Origin: an uncultured Desulfosarcina sp.
GTDB taxonomy: Bacteria > Desulfobacterota > Desulfobacteria > Desulfobacterales > Desulfosarcinaceae
DNA length: 64,000 nt
Reading direction: 5' to 3'
Assembly (NCBI GenBank): GCA_963674945.2
Contig: CAXXWQ010000004.1
Span: forward strand, 1,440,001-1,504,000
The translations under genes and the position numbers were made by a program. The notes below the pieces were generated by a model that saw only the letters and a program-made list of their open reading frames with translations, was not told the origin of the DNA and did not search any database. Positions 57,519 through 64,000 of this stretch are shown piece by piece (position 1 is the first letter of the stretch; each line of letters opens with the position of its first letter).

Positions 57519-59189
57519 GTAGAGTAGGGAGGGATTACCCTCCCCCTCGTCAAACCGGACAGGCGGATTTCCCGCATCCGGCTTTCCCTTGAACTTCACC
57601 AACAAGCACACGCAGAGCATCAGCTAATGTCGCTACTACAGATATATCAGCCCCAGCTGTTTCAGGTGCCGGTAATAGCTTCTCCCTTTCGGAGGACGAA
57701 AAGGACGCTGACTGCGACGACGTAAATGACCGATAAAGCGATGCAGAACATACCAGTTCATTTCCCGAAACGCCTTGCGAGGATAGCCGAATTGAAAGTA
57801 GTTGGCCCATCCGCGCTGTTGGCGATTCACCGCCTCGATCAGCTGCGTCACAGGAACACAACTGTGTTTGCGGCTAATCGTTTCTCGAAGCCTGTCCCGA
57901 TGCGCCTGCATCGCCTTGCGCGATGGCGTTACGTTCAGATAGAAGACCTTCTCGAACCAATGAAGGTAAATATTCGCCAAAAGCGGCGATATCACACCGC
58001 CTTGAGGCGTACCCTTCCCTTTCCGCGAGACTTTCTTGCCGCCGTGGCCATCATCCTCCTCGATCGGTGCCGACAGCCACATCTGAATCAGCTTCAACAC
58101 CGAGCGGTCGACGATCCGCATGCGAACACACTTCATCAGCTTGTCCTGCGGAATCGCGTCAAAGTAACCTTTCAGGTCGGCATCAAGCACCGACGTCAAT
58201 CCCTGTTTTCGGTTCGATGATCAGCAGCGCGGCCGTCTGGATGACACGGTCCCGTATCGTCGGGATGCCCAAAGGGCGCTGACGTCCGTCGGGTTTGGGT
58301 ATATATACCCGCCGTACTGCCATGGGGCGGTACTGCTTGCGCCTGAGGTCTTCATGGATTTCTTCCACGAAACCCTCAGACCCGCCCTCACTGGCTTCAA
58401 TCTGTTCGAATGTAACGCCGTCCACACCGCCCTTGCCTCCGTTGGCTTTGGCGATCCGGTAGGCGCTGGTCAATACGTCTCGCCGATAAATCCGATCATA
58501 GAGTGCATAAAATCGGAACTTCGGCTCCTGCTTCGCTTTCAGGTAGAGCTTCTGTCTCAAAGAAGAGAGTTTCTCCGGAAGCCGGATCGTCTTTACGTGG
58601 GCGGACTTCCACACGTCCACGTCAATAGACTCCCACAGTTCCAGTTGTTCCGTAATGGGTCTGTTAACCAAGCGGCACTCCTCTTGTCTGACTCTGCATG
58701 TTCAAGGCAAGGCCCCTTGGCTCCACGGGCATTACCCCGCTTCTCGGCTACTATGGGCCTCTCCGACTCCCGACATGGCCGTTTGCCGGTTATTGATTCC
58801 CCACAAACGTTGGTGACACGATCGCCGCCGTGCCGGGTCTCCCAGGTTCCTCGATGCGACTGTCCAAGCGCGCCCTCCCCTATCACCCCGGGGTGCCCTG
58901 CGGCTTCTCTCGCTCGTTGCTTCACCGCAGGTGGCAGGCTTCGCCATCTTTGGCAGGTTGGCCACACCCAATTGCGTAACGAGGCCGAAGCGGGTTCATT
59001 TTCATTAGGGCTCACTTGTTCGCAGTCCGGGAAGGCTATTCCCTTCGCCACCCGCCATAGGGCGGTGACCGATCCGCTTCCCATGCTCGGTTACCCTGAC
59101 ATGGGGGACCGCTGCTACACGATGAACGAGCAATTATCATGGCTGACTCCTTTCAGTCGGCAAGTCACACCAGGCTTATCCTGGCGCTC
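57519..59189 (-). mobile_element. Group II intron (1671 nt as present)
   Basis: 5' end GAGCG; domain V AGCCGGATGCGGGAAATCCGCCTGTCCGGTT; short domain VI ending CCTACTCTAC; EBS1 CAAAGA in a GCC/GGC hairpin. Confidence 0.92.
57636..58671 (-). pseudogene. ltrA: Group II intron reverse transcriptase/maturase with two internal deletions
   Basis: [52 protein letters not shown] and maturase RGWANYF are present; SYGFRP and YADD segments are missing; frameshift near 58208. Confidence 0.9.
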
Positions 59190-59339: not shown

Positions 59340-62300
59340 TTATTCGCGCCCCGATGTTCCGGCCATGACGGACTTTCCCACCTCCCTGCCGATAACGGTG
59401 TCAAATGCCAACCGCACCGGATCGGGAAAGGGCGTGGCCACAGGCCGGTTCTGACCGTCCCGCGTCACCCAGACGGCCCGGTGAAAGCCGTAGGCGATCT
59501 TCACCGACGATCCGTCCGGTTCCAGGCGGAAGTAATCCACGTGAAAGGTGACGCTGCAACTTCTCAGCTCCTTGACGGCCAGGGTGAGCTTGATCCGATC
59601 GAAGGGCATGGCCTCGCGCAGGTGGTCCACGCGGCTCTCCAGGGCCAGCAGCTCTCCCTTCTCACCGATTCCGCCGAAGTAGTCGGGAATCAGATCGTAG
59701 AAGAATCGGTCCCGGATCTGCCCCTGCCAGTCGTAGTAATTGGCATAGTAGATATTGCCCACCAGGTTGGCGTGGGCCAGGGTGGTGTCGAAGACCTGTT
59801 CCCTCACGATGGCGCGAATCACCGGTCCCGGGGGGGCCAGATAGAGGATGGGATCATCGTCCGATTCAAGCAGGTGTGCCATGGATTCCTCCATGGGCGC
59901 GGGGATATCGGGCGCATCGAAACGCGGGCACATGTCCTCGATGAAATGCCCGTAGTAGGTTGGATAAGGGGCGACCCTGGCCTTTCCCGGACCCAGTATC
60001 TCCACCCAGGTGGTCTGAAGACGGCAAAAGGCGAGACGTTTGCGGCCACCATCCTTTCCCATTTTTCGAAAATCATAGGAAAGCGTCATGGTGGAATTCT
60101 CGGGCCCGCTGTTGTCACTCACCCACATGAGAATTTCCACCTGGTCGCTGGTGGCACCCTCCCCTACTATCTTCAGGTGGCCATAGTTGGTCACCCCGCC
60201 CCATCGGCCGCTGGCGAACTGATCCGACATCTGGGCCAGGACCGGCCAGGCAGAGGCTTCCCGGGTGTTACCCATCCATTTGATGAAGTTGGAAAAGTAG
60301 ATGGTCCGGCTCAAATTGGCGCTGGGCTGGAAGGTGACCGGCAGCCGCTGGACGAACACCAGCTGCCCCTGGGGTCCACCCTCGATCATCTCGAAGGGGC
60401 GGACCTCGTACAAGGGTTCGTATCCCGGATAGTCGGCGGTCAAAAGGTGCGCCGGCACCCGGGGCGCCGCCTTCTCGGCGGTCGTGGTAGTAACGGCCAG
60501 AATCTGCGGCCTGCCCCAGGTCAGACGAATGGCCAGGGTGAGAATCTGTAGGGCGGAACCTTCGGCGTCGGTGACTTCAAAAAGAACGGCCGTCCCTTTT
60601 TTTTTCACGATCCGAAGGGTATCTGAAGAGACGACACCGATCTTGCCCAAGGTTTCGGTGGCGGCCCAGACGCGGGTACCGGCGGTATCCAGATCTTCTA
60701 TGGATTCGGCGAGTTCATCCAGAAGCCGGGCCCGATCCGGTCCCAGCAGACCTATCCACGCGTCTTTCTCCCTCGAGGTAATAGCGGCCAGGTCACACCC
60801 CATTGGACCGGGACCGACCGAACAGAGACAGGTCCGGTCCTCATGGGTCAACGACAGGTCCAGCACGCCACCGGCGATATTGGCGACGGCCGGTTTACCC
60901 GTCTCTTCCCAGTGGACGGCCAATGAAGCGGATGGGACATCGTACTTGTCGGCGGCCTCCTGCAGCGCCTTTTCCAGCAGGGGCATCTCGAGATCCCGTC
61001 GCCGGTCCCTGGTCTGGTCGTGAATTCCCACGATGGTGGCCAGATCCACGAAAGGTGTTGTCACGGCAAGATCGTTTCCGGCCGCATCCAGCGCCTGCCG
61101 AACCATCTGCCGGTCCCGCTCCTCTGGTCGGATCAGATCGGCCACCGTCGGGTAGTGATCGTGGTGCTTGAGAATTCGAAGACGATAGCCGGAGAGTTCG
61201 GCCCGGATCGATCCGTCCTCACCAACTGCCGTCACTTTGTAAATCAGGTCCCGGTCATCCTGCTCCATCAGTTCAACGCGCACGTTTGCCGATTTACCGC
61301 CGTCGAAGAATTCGGGGAAAAGATCCATGCAATCGATGGATACGGGAAGGCTGGTATCCTGGGGTACCAAGAGGGCCGCGCTCTGCAGCATCGTATCGGT
61401 GAAGAAGGGATCACCCAGGCACAACCGGACCGAAGGGTGTTTCCCGAAGGCCTGGCCCACCAGTCGATCCTTTGGAGTCAGGCGGCTGGTGAGCAGTGCC
61501 GTTCCGGTCCGTTCACCGGATTGTTGGATTTGCCAGACCCTTTCGATGCCCTGGAACCGGGGACCTTGGAACAAGAGCGTGGGACGGTACAGATCCGTCT
61601 CGGGGACCAGCGGCAAGGGTTCATCGGGCAGTTCCATGACGGCTGCCGGCGCCGTTTCCCCTGCCTCGAAGGCAAAGGAGGCGGAGAAAAAGTCGGAAGC
61701 AACACCGGTATCCTGCTTGACGATACCGGCGTGAATCGTGGTCCGCCCATCGCCATCTGCCTCGGATATGATGGCATGGATGGTGATGTCGGCTCCCGAT
61801 TCGGCATCCACGGTGATGGGCCGGAGAAGACGAATATCCCGGATCTGCATCCGCACCGGCTTCTTTTGTTCGGTAAGGTAAAACACCGCTTCGGCCATGG
61901 CCTCCAGGCCGAATACCGTCGGGAAGAGATATGACCCTTGAAAATGGTGATCCTTGAGATAAAGATCGCTTTCGAGGGATAGATGGGCGGAAAAAACCGC
62001 CTCCACCCCCGGCGTCAGATGAATAAGCCGTTCCAGAAACCGCCAAGCCCGGGGCGGGTCGGGAATTGTCTGGCGCCACGTGTCCAGTCCCCCCAGACGG
62101 GCGGTCACCACCACCTGGCGATGGCCCGGGTCGTGGGTGAAGAGTCTAAGAAATCGGTCCACACCCATATCGGTGGGAATGGCGTCGATGCCCCTGTCCC
62201 GAAGCAGGGCCACGCTTCCCATGCGTGCCCCCATCCCTTCGTCCCGCCAGATGCTGTAGGCGACATTGAGGATCTGGGTTTGGGGATGGACGGCATGAAA

Positions 62301-64000
62301 CCCTCGCAGGAGGATGTCCATTACCTCGTTGGAAAAGCCGTACCAACCGTTTCCGGGCATGCCGGTGAGGCCGATGATGGATCCGAGCCCCACGATGAGC
62401 TTTGGCGGGTTCCCGTGAAGCGGATCGAGCAGGTGAAGCAATCCCAGCACCTTGGGGGCGGTTTCTGCAAATGCCTGTTCGGGAACGACCTGTCCGGTCA
62501 ATCGTGGCCGGTTGAGGCCGGCACCGTGGATAATCCCGGTCACCGTTCCAAACTTTTCGGTGACCTGGCGCAGCATATTTTCGACCTGGCTTCGATTTGT
62601 CACATCACAGGAAAAGTAGGCTGCCGTCAGGCCGAGATCCACATACTGGTCTAAAACATCGCGGATCTCTCGACTGGCCGGTTCGTCCGGCGCCTCTTCG
62701 GGAAAAGAGGTCCTCCCCACCAATGCCATGGTCACACCGGTATGGCGCGCCACGGCCAGGGCGCAGGCGGCCGTGATCCCCTTGGCGCCGCCGGTAACGA
62801 GGATGACGTCCTTTCCTGTCCAACGAATATCGCGCACTTTTGCATCCGCAGGCTGTACGAGATGGGGAATGGGGATTCGGCGGGTCTGGTCCAGATCGTA
62901 TCCCACGGCGGCGTAACTCTCCTGGGTGAAGATTTCGGCCAGGGTCTCCCAGGCGATGATCTCTGGCGACAGGGCGGAACTGAAATCCACGACACGAACC
63001 CGAAGGTCCCCCCGTTCCAGATGAAGACTCGCTCCCAGCGCCATGGTTGCGCATCGATCCGCTGTCGCGAATCGTGGGTTCCGCCCGAAAAAACCGCCAC
63101 CGAATTGAATCCAGGCGATGGTGGTGGTCCTTCTGGGAGCTTCGGCCGCCGGCGGCACGCGGGTCAACAGCGACCGCATACGGATCATCCGGTCCAACAT
63201 TGCCGACGGATCCGCGCCTCCGAGGTCGTTTTTGGGCAAGATGGTCACCAAATGAGAAAAGGCCGGATCCTGAACCAAGGCGTCAACATCTTCATGATCC
63301 ATGGCGCACCGCTTGGTAAAAGCGCCGCGATGGAATAAATTAACGTCCAGGGCTTCGGCCACATCCGCCGCGTCTTCGCTGAAGAGAATCAGGAACCGCG
63401 CCTTTTGCAGATCATTCTCCGAGCGCATCCGCCAGTTTTCGGGAAACAGTGGATAGGGTGTCTCCACCATTTCCATGGCGAAGTTGCGCACCCAGGTGGT
63501 ATGGTCATCGGGAACGACCGGCGGTCGCGTCTCTTCGACGCCGGCGACGGCTTCCTGCTGCTGGGCCGCCATCCGGTTCAAGATGGTGCCGATCTCCCGC
63601 AAACTGCATGTGCGCAAAGGCTCGATGTCCAGGTGAGCGGACAGTCCCAAGGCCGTGGCGGTGCTCACCACCAGGTCCTGGAGCTTGTCCGGCCCCAGGT
63701 GAAGATCTTTTTCCACCAAAAGGTCCGGATCTAGGGTGTCCATGGGAAAACCGGTGATTCGGGCGGCCTGGACGCGCAACTCGGTCATCGCATCCAAAGG
63801 GGGGGCCACCTGGATTTCGGGTTCCATGGCCATGGCAATTTGATCCACGACCTGGGCCAGGCTTGCGTTGGCAAGCCCCGGGACCTCCAACCGATCGGAC
63901 ACACCGGTCTTGTTGGCCAACCACACGATCAGGTCTCCGGCCTTGATGGAATCCAGGTTCAGATCATCCAGGAGGCGAAAGGACAATTCGATGCTTTCGG
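59340..64000 (-). CDS. Enediyne-PKS-like iterative type I PKS, 3' part: ACP-ACP*-KR-DH-PPTase-TE-TE (runs off the window)
   Basis: Frame open to the window edge; LLDDLNLDSI (ACP); LVTGGAKGIT...WYGFSN (KR); DHHFQGSYLFP (DH); MGCD...RVWAATETLGK (PPTase-like); two hot-dog TE motifs. Confidence 0.88.
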   Translation of the reverse strand, partial: ESIELSFRLLDDLNLDSIKAGDLIVWLANKTGVSDRLEVPGLANASLAQVVDQIAMAMEPEIQVAPPLDAMTELRVQAARITGFPMDTLDPDLLVEKDLHLGPDKLQDLVVSTATALGLSAHLDIEPLRTCSLREIGTILNRMAAQQQEAVAGVEETRPPVVPDDHTTWVRNFAMEMVETPYPLFPENWRMRSENDLQKARFLILFSEDAADVAEALDVNLFHRGAFTKRCAMDHEDVDALVQDPAFSHLVTILPKNDLGGADPSAMLDRMIRMRSLLTRVPPAAEAPRRTTTIAWIQFGGGFFGRNPRFATADRCATMALGASLHLERGDLRVRVVDFSSALSPEIIAWETLAEIFTQESYAAVGYDLDQTRRIPIPHLVQPADAKVRDIRWTGKDVILVTGGAKGITAACALAVARHTGVTMALVGRTSFPEEAPDEPASREIRDVLDQYVDLGLTAAYFSCDVTNRSQVENMLRQVTEKFGTVTGIIHGAGLNRPRLTGQVVPEQAFAETAPKVLGLLHLLDPLHGNPPKLIVGLGSIIGLTGMPGNGWYGFSNEVMDILLRGFHAVHPQTQILNVAYSIWRDEGMGARMGSVALLRDRGIDAIPTDMGVDRFLRLFTHDPGHRQVVVTARLGGLDTWRQTIPDPPRAWRFLERLIHLTPGVEAVFSAHLSLESDLYLKDHHFQGSYLFPTVFGLEAMAEAVFYLTEQKKPVRMQIRDIRLLRPITVDAESGADITIHAIISEADGDGRTTIHAGIVKQDTGVASDFFSASFAFEAGETAPAAVMELPDEPLPLVPETDLYRPTLLFQGPRFQGIERVWQIQQSGERTGTALLTSRLTPKDRLVGQAFGKHPSVRLCLGDPFFTDTMLQSAALLVPQDTSLPVSIDCMDLFPEFFDGGKSANVRVELMEQDDRDLIYKVTAVGEDGSIRAELSGYRLRILKHHDHYPTVADLIRPEERDRQMVRQALDAAGNDLAVTTPFVDLATIVGIHDQTRDRRRDLEMPLLEKALQEAADKYDVPSASLAVHWEETGKPAVANIAGGVLDLSLTHEDRTCLCSVGPGPMGCDLAAITSREKDAWIGLLGPDRARLLDELAESIEDLDTAGTRVWAATETLGKIGVVSSDTLRIVKKKGTAVLFEVTDAEGSALQILTLAIRLTWGRPQILAVTTTTAEKAAPRVPAHLLTADYPGYEPLYEVRPFEMIEGGPQGQLVFVQRLPVTFQPSANLSRTIYFSNFIKWMGNTREASAWPVLAQMSDQFASGRWGGVTNYGHLKIVGEGATSDQVEILMWVSDNSGPENSTMTLSYDFRKMGKDGGRKRLAFCRLQTTWVEILGPGKARVAPYPTYYGHFIEDMCPRFDAPDIPAPMEESMAHLLESDDDPILYLAPPGPVIRAIVREQVFDTTLAHANLVGNIYYANYYDWQGQIRDRFFYDLIPDYFGGIGEKGELLALESRVDHLREAMPFDRIKLTLAVKELRSCSVTFHVDYFRLEPDGSSVKIAYGFHRAVWVTRDGQNRPVATPFPDPVRLAFDTVIGREVGKSVMAGTSGRE

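Follow-up and report, generated by a model that had tools for sequence, protein, structure and literature searches.

A natural single-chain fusion of a PKSE-type synthase with two hotdog domains in Desulfosarcina, predicted to release a free polyene

RerA/RerB of Rhodococcus erythropolis PR4 is the closest characterised system to the gene described here: RerA (KS-AT-ACP-ACP-KR-DH) and RerB (PPTase-Y-TE) yield polyenes with 6-9 double bonds as well as polyenones, both in E. coli and in vitro (PMC11563203). With the TE inactivated, the system is orange, its chains probably remaining enzyme-bound; the polyenes are unstable, and a one-chain fusion of RerAB was made artificially by the same authors (PMC11563203). 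Our literature search for follow-ups on RerA/RerB found none. Among enediyne-type synthases (PKSE), PKSE/TE pairs of the SgcE/SgcE10 type give pentadecaheptaene, as described in the available part of PMC9992847, and enediyne clusters are defined, according to the portion of PMC4480864 consulted, by the five-gene cassette E10/E/E5/E4/E3. CexF of cellulolytic clostridia is an arylpolyene iterative PKS whose PPTase, ACP, ligase and KASIII are each encoded by a gene of their own and which uses tetronate release (PMC12144888, accessible text).

The DNA that we analysed, hereafter the window, is a stretch of 64,000 nucleotides whose minus strand carries, at 59340..64000, the 3′ 58% of an iterative type I PKS gene, that is, the last 1,552 of 2,692 residues. 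The initial annotation had proposed looking upstream for KS and AT domains; both are present beyond the window end, and the whole gene (C4:1499340-1507418, minus strand, 2,692 aa) encodes KS-AT-ACP-ACP-(serine-less ACP)-KR-DH-PPTase-hotdog-hotdog. The order ACP-KR-DH-PPTase followed by two hotdogs, proposed from the window alone, was thus borne out, with the carrier region refined to two serine-bearing ACPs and a serine-less repeat. The reading frame stays open from the end of the window down to its stop codon at 59340, and internal stops are absent across the whole gene. Contigs of three sequencing runs span the gene with no listed substitution within it; these come from two samples of one study, possibly the source of the assembly, and do not count as independent support. 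No RNA run appeared among the listed holders of the gene. The gene is intact and conserved, and represents a naturally fused version of the RerA/RerB type.

Pfam recovered KS, AT, ACP, KR and DH above cut-off and 4HBT_2 on the last domain below it, and profiles built from homologues added a PPTase-like domain (residues 2108-2310), hotdogs at 2350-2499 and 2526-2674, two full ACPs and the third repeat. KS (residues 10-468), AT (596-923) and ACP1 (1037-1102), placed by Pfam and homologue profiles, lie beyond the window end. ACP2 (residues 1127-1192) begins just past it and occupies 63843..64000, with Ser1157 in an LDSIK motif; the third ACP-like repeat, delimited by homologue profiles at 63591..63764, has its serine replaced (LHLGPDK) and cannot be primed. 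The region at 62814..63491, with WVRNFAMEM (63468-63494) at its start, aligns with SgcE and is likely a structural KR subdomain. It precedes the ketoreductase (62094..62813; PF08659; TGGAKGIT motif, Tyr1693), the dehydratase (61149..62036; PF21089 and PF14765; His1824 and Asp2008), the integrated PPTase-like domain (60489..61097; Asp2209-x-Ala2211, Glu2255, Lys2259), a first hotdog, TE1 (59922..60371; Arg2386, Glu2387, Thr2410, Asn2411), and a second, E10/E7-like hotdog, TE2 (59397..59843; Asn2551, Tyr2557, Tyr2561, Arg2569), all on the minus strand. The motifs quoted in the initial annotation that we looked up were all present: ANLSRTIY (60297-60320), ANLVGNIY (59748-59771) and WVRNFAMEM, together with RFLERLI (62022-62042), LLFQGPRFQ (61551-61577) and LGDPF (61404-61418). 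Residues C216, H350, H393, S699, H803, S1067, Y1693, H1824 and D2008 are retained in all 14 orthologues compared, and the catalytic roles of such KS, AT, ACP, KR and DH residues are well established. No ER domain was found in the protein.

The protein is colinear with SgcE of the C-1027 plasmid, at 42% identity across KS-AT and 28% across the remainder up to the PPTase. In a KS tree of 29 rows, a subset of those in a quick 52-row tree, 18 tandem-hotdog and 5 PKSE sequences grouped together against 6 PfaA-like KS with support of 100/100; CalE8, DynE8, RerA and aryl-polyene KS are outside this tree, and four of its rows are called PfaA-like by similarity only. The kinship with PKSE rather than PfaA that had been proposed therefore holds. 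The five actinobacterial PKSE form their own long-branched clade, with the target KS outside it. Tandem-hotdog KS were monophyletic in 60% of bootstrap trees, and PKSE as sister or as nested group both fit the tree; the quick 52-row tree gave the tandem-hotdog group an SH-aLRT of 93 and contained one very long branch.

The relationship of both hotdogs to E10/E7 was likewise upheld, by direct match for TE2 (SgcE10, E 2e-15; CalE7, 7e-15; DynE7, 3e-12) and by profile for TE1. TE1 was unmatched in direct sequence searches against the same three proteins; profile comparison with four E10 proteins gave E values of 6e-18 to 8e-15, and hhalign gave 97.4% to E10 and 99.9% to TE2. The pair is compatible, at the sequence level, with duplication of an E10-like domain. 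An arginine aligned with SgcE10 R39, a residue that is catalytic in E10/E7, occurs in the two hotdogs in 120/120 and 117/120 rows, respectively. An AlphaFold model of the pair (pLDDT 92.3, pTM 0.91) aligned along both of its halves with double-hotdog acyl-ACP thioesterases (Z 23.7, rmsd 3.2, 250 aligned) and matched double hotdogs of other activity, namely LnmK and dehydratases, at Z 16-19. The two thioesterases of the earlier description are better read as one unit, TE1 and TE2 being predicted from the model to fold as a single double hotdog. Of the 120 homologues listed, which had been selected with the hotdog region, 119 have both repeats. TE1 is the most conserved domain among the 14 orthologues (90%, vs 82% for KS and 81% for TE2) and has the lowest dN; among distant homologues, its conservation is no better than that of TE2 and below that of KS (0.54 and 0.41 against 0.64 and 0.58). 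Positions 2368 and 2378 of TE1, near the catalytic loop, diverge from E10 and vary family-wide. We also considered a single composite active site made of the TE2 loop and the TE1 arginine; this idea is weakened because the R415A variant made in RerB concerns the TE2 arginine and TE inactivation blocked release (PMC11563203, in the portion available).

The PPTase domain had no match in Pfam or in a PDB sequence search; its assignment comes from colinear alignment with the SgcE C-terminus and from conserved H2192, D2209, E2255 and K2259. The first acid, Asp2209, is retained, and the second is replaced by Ala2211, where RerB (acids D48 and E50) and SgcE have an acid; in other group II PPTases the second acid is non-essential, as the accessible part of PMC4103896 reports. 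Self-priming is not universal in the family, since the orthologue L051 has lost Asp2209, Glu2255 and Lys2259 and the domain is missing from 9 of 120 homologues. Two other PPTase genes lie elsewhere in this genome, and the ACP2 repeat is absent from 4 of the 14 orthologues.

Taking these analyses together, we consider it probable that the gene encodes a self-priming, self-releasing synthase of the PKSE/RerAB lineage, with a free polyene as its predicted product and not an enediyne. The PPTase domain, with the residues described above, would load Ser1067 and Ser1157. AT, KS, KR and DH would then cycle from malonyl-CoA with no enoyl-reduction step, each round contributing one double bond to a fully conjugated chain, since all catalytic residues are present and an ER domain was not found. 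TE1 and TE2, of predicted fold, would pair within one chain as free E10 protomers pair between chains. By a release chemistry that we infer from SgcE/SgcE10 and RerA/RerB, the pair would cleave the final beta-hydroxy or beta-keto thioester by hydrolysis, with decarboxylation leaving a terminal polyene or polyenone of ~C15-C19. With a tailoring or export gene lacking alongside, the product would remain in the membrane and serve as a pigment that scavenges radicals and oxygen. This antioxidant role is our first guess, a tentative one with somewhat less than even chances, and a lipid signal is its rival. Because RerAB polyenes are unstable and the native product of RerAB is not known, enzymes from unlinked genes may convert the polyene into its natural final form.

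Sulfate reducers of the genus Desulfosarcina are common in sediments and degrade hydrocarbons. The sulfate-reducing host suggested at the outset is supported by the closest named relatives of the gene, which belong to this genus; among the best 80 of 441 matching stretches, D. alkanivorans, D. widdelii, D. variabilis and D. cetonica are carriers, and other named carriers are scattered over Myxococcota, Planctomycetota, Omnitrophota, Actinomycetota, Pseudomonadota, Cyanobacteriota, Bacillota and Oligoflexales. No relative was found in viral contigs. The hotdog pair occurs in 25 of 30 same-genus genomes, 3 of 28 from other members of the family, none of 24 from the order's other families and 1 of 400 phylum-wide. 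The gene is dispensable, because it was not found in 5 of the 30 genus genomes, two of which are at least 96% complete in at most 20 contigs; at 3 of 17 other orthologous loci it is in pieces. dN was below dS in nearly all domain-by-pair comparisons among 14 orthologues, and within the genus the gene sits mostly in the same surroundings under purifying selection, as judged from these sequences. The distribution fits vertical retention in one genus with patchy spread elsewhere. What is new here is that the gene is near-core in a genus of strict anaerobes from which strains have been cultured and that, in sequence conservation, its first hotdog ranks above every other domain within that genus. 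The architecture is less singular than had been suggested: the two-gene RerA/RerB form has been characterised (PMC11563203), and fused versions are spread over many phyla.

Orthologues stand back to back with a gene of 530-580 aa (18/18 loci) and face an adenine deaminase gene (14/18), and no tailoring, export, acyltransferase or lipid-assembly gene is adjacent to the PKS. The divergent upstream gene (C4:1507505-1509247), with a HASHQQIH motif, had no Pfam, NCBIfam or PDB match and only weak HIT/GalT leads (0.77-0.80); its presence in 45 of 61 relatives, many without the PKS, ruled it out as a dedicated partner. A CrtI-like gene (C4:2679860-2681374), considered as an unlinked tailoring partner, was ruled out as well: 6 of the 31 genus genomes have a match, and one of those lacks the PKS. 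Between the PKS stop and the adenine deaminase gene lies a group II intron remnant (window 57519-~59190, minus strand), with Rfam RF00029 at 57519-57586 and RF02003 at 59000-59159; the remnant is single-copy in the genome, its RT/maturase ORF is short and in two pieces (58671-58183 and 58199-57636), and the 13 further loci that share this gene order have no such ORFs at the same place. Some 110 bases ahead of the start of the PKS gene, 13 of the 18 orthologous loci (among L040-L059) carry TGGCAT-N5-TTTCA (shuffle rate 0.003), a partly palindromic, sigma-54-like element with a changed -12 box and an inverted repeat upstream. It is absent from this genome's copy, from L052 and L053 and from five PKS-less control regions, and near-variants occur in L041 and L044.

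Neighbourhoods at other loci are more varied. In 6 of 59 loci, a count inflated by kin, a CrtI/CrtISO-family oxidoreductase is either fused to the synthase or encoded by the next gene downstream. A CrtI/CrtISO-like flavoprotein is fused behind the hotdogs in L143 and L134 and in the proteins P0109, P0119 and P0120, the last of which also has a PilZ domain. Cyanobacterial loci L009, L133, L145 and L148 contain two or three flavin halogenase-like genes, making halogenated polyenes candidate products, and a Gloeothece cluster contains a carotenoid oxygenase. Downstream of the synthase in the group of L127, L146, L138 and L143 are HisKA_7TM kinase, response regulator or HD-domain genes. Kinase, CrtI-family and halogenase neighbours support a polyene product and leave a signalling role possible.

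Two alternatives concern the chain itself. A PfaA/HglE-type lipid synthase would work with a trans-acting enoyl reductase and make chains that are saturated or methylene-interrupted; tandem ACPs are in keeping with this, PfaA TIGR02813 is the best NCBIfam match, and the genome does encode a PfaA-like synthase elsewhere (C3:2472712-2479380), besides a separate multi-KS gene (C4:122848-127185). However, the TIGR02813 match reached 572 bits against a cut-off of 1010, the KS is kept out of the PfaA-like group (100/100) and pfa partner genes are absent from the neighbourhood, leaving this reading very improbable. The gene might instead begin an enediyne or polyyne pathway whose remaining genes lie elsewhere, as its PKSE-type KS, PPTase and E10-type hotdogs could suggest. 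A distant locus, L147, the only E4-like case in an initial set of loci, has three ORFs of ~695 aa downstream of a tandem-hotdog PKS (L147:11032-17590), of which the two scanned are FG-GAP/UnbV (E4-like); E3 and E5 had no match within that locus. Against this, tblastn searches of this genome, which is 98.7% complete, with SgcE3, SgcE4 and SgcE5 gave zero matches at E 0.01. The E3 family DUF1702 occurred in none of 31 genus genomes (C-1027 plasmid control positive at 1e-131). E5 was absent from this genome with a positive control and had only a weak 71-residue match (6.6e-4) in one other genus genome, and the E4 family search ran without a positive control. No discrete E10/E7 thioesterase gene was found, SgcE10 matching only the fused ends of the genome's two PKS genes. 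Because E3, E4 and E5 were not found in the genome and E3 in none of the 31, the gene is not part of an enediyne pathway; the enediyne/polyyne reading is already largely refuted and is hardly to be credited now, and the gene is no new enediyne source. The initial annotation's self-priming, self-releasing polyene or polyyne synthase is accordingly supported for the polyene and not for the polyyne, and an enediyne product is not supported either.

The other alternatives keep most of the chemistry and change the fate of the product. The released polyene or polyenone could diffuse as a hydrophobic signal that membrane sensor kinases perceive. Among loci outside the orthologue group of the window's gene, 25 of the 38 visible on both sides have a kinase gene as immediate neighbour, as do 28 of the 59 visible on at least one side; these counts are overstated because many loci are kin, and they compare with 111 HisKA matches in this 7.08 Mb genome. 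These kinases are of three unrelated types (six-helix hybrid, STAND Ser/Thr and HisKA_7TM). A FadL-type channel gene lies upstream in two loci (L127 and L146), and an HD-domain protein lies downstream in two. The genome's second synthase copy (C3:140871-148688, 2,606 aa, single ACP, 43-46% identical to the window copy) is directly behind a hybrid kinase (C3:148899-150884) with about six membrane helices, no periplasmic domain and a MASE8-like lead (0.93), and such a six-helix kinase is conserved upstream of the synthase in 10 other loci. Yet the window copy has no adjacent kinase, its neighbours being the 530-580 aa gene and, past the intron remnant, the adenine deaminase gene; two-component genes two to three genes off persist in genomes without the PKS; Pfam MASE8 had no match in this genome; and the kinases could regulate the gene instead of sensing its product. 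We judge a signal unlikely, and give similarly low odds to a broader proposal in which the fused double-hotdog family would be the synthase of a new polyene-signal class read by adjacent membrane kinases, near-core in Desulfosarcina, with enediyne PKSEs as a specialised offshoot. Finally, a polyenoyl or partly reduced chain might be passed to a lipid or other acceptor, TE1 acting as a transferase, isomerase or dehydratase and not as a half-hydrolase. The divergence of TE1 from E10 near the catalytic loop, at 90% conservation vs 82% for KS, and the LnmK and dehydratase matches to the model (Z 16-19) speak for this; conversely, TE1 conservation among distant homologues does not exceed that of TE2 and is below that of KS, no acyltransferase or lipid-assembly gene is adjacent, and RerA/RerB frees polyenes with the same two domains (PMC11563203), so that we hold such a transfer to be distinctly unlikely. 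Hydrolytic release of a free polyene is the reading that we prefer.

If this is correct, most Desulfosarcina species would make a highly conjugated, oxygen-labile polyene, a hitherto unreported metabolite that might serve as a marker of the genus, with the fused gene as a one-gene polyene factory. Our search, which lay mostly outside the subscription literature and included the available part of PMC11003711, found no report of such a polyene in Desulfosarcina. Named cultured carriers make the native product and role of RerAB-type enzymes testable. E10/E7 thioesterases work as oligomers; taking 'domain Y' to be another hotdog of the E10 kind suggests a way in which an oligomeric thioesterase can be fused to a PKS.

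Comparison with known systems places the protein as follows. Like CexF, as described in the accessible text of PMC12144888, it is an iterative type I PKS of strict anaerobes, with a conjugated pigment as its predicted product; CexF is set apart, by the same description, in that PPTase, ACP, ligase and KASIII are encoded separately and release is by a tetronate. With double-hotdog acyl-ACP thioesterases (plant FatA/FatB; bacterial 2ess and 4gak) it has in common the pairing of two hotdog repeats within a single chain (Z up to 23.7) at only 9-15% identity, and this arrangement is likely convergent because the repeats here are E10 homologues. It resembles SgcE/SgcE10, CalE8/CalE7 and DynE8/DynE7 in domain order through the PPTase, in KS lineage and in the E10-type hotdog fold with its arginine, but differs in a thioesterase that is fused and duplicated, in two ACPs and in the lack of E3/E4/E5. 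The likeness to RerA/RerB was judged by eye from supplement sequences, with RerA/RerB in none of the trees and no identity value attached: the order KS-AT-ACP-ACP-KR-DH then PPTase-'Y'-TE is shared, domain Y carries the TE1 motifs, R415 corresponds by eye and residue count to Arg2569, and the RerA/RerB gene table, in the part available, names no enediyne cassette genes (PMC11563203). Unlike RerA/RerB, the Desulfosarcina synthase is one natural polypeptide, with an extra serine-less ACP repeat, alanine in place of PPTase E50 and a strict-anaerobe host.
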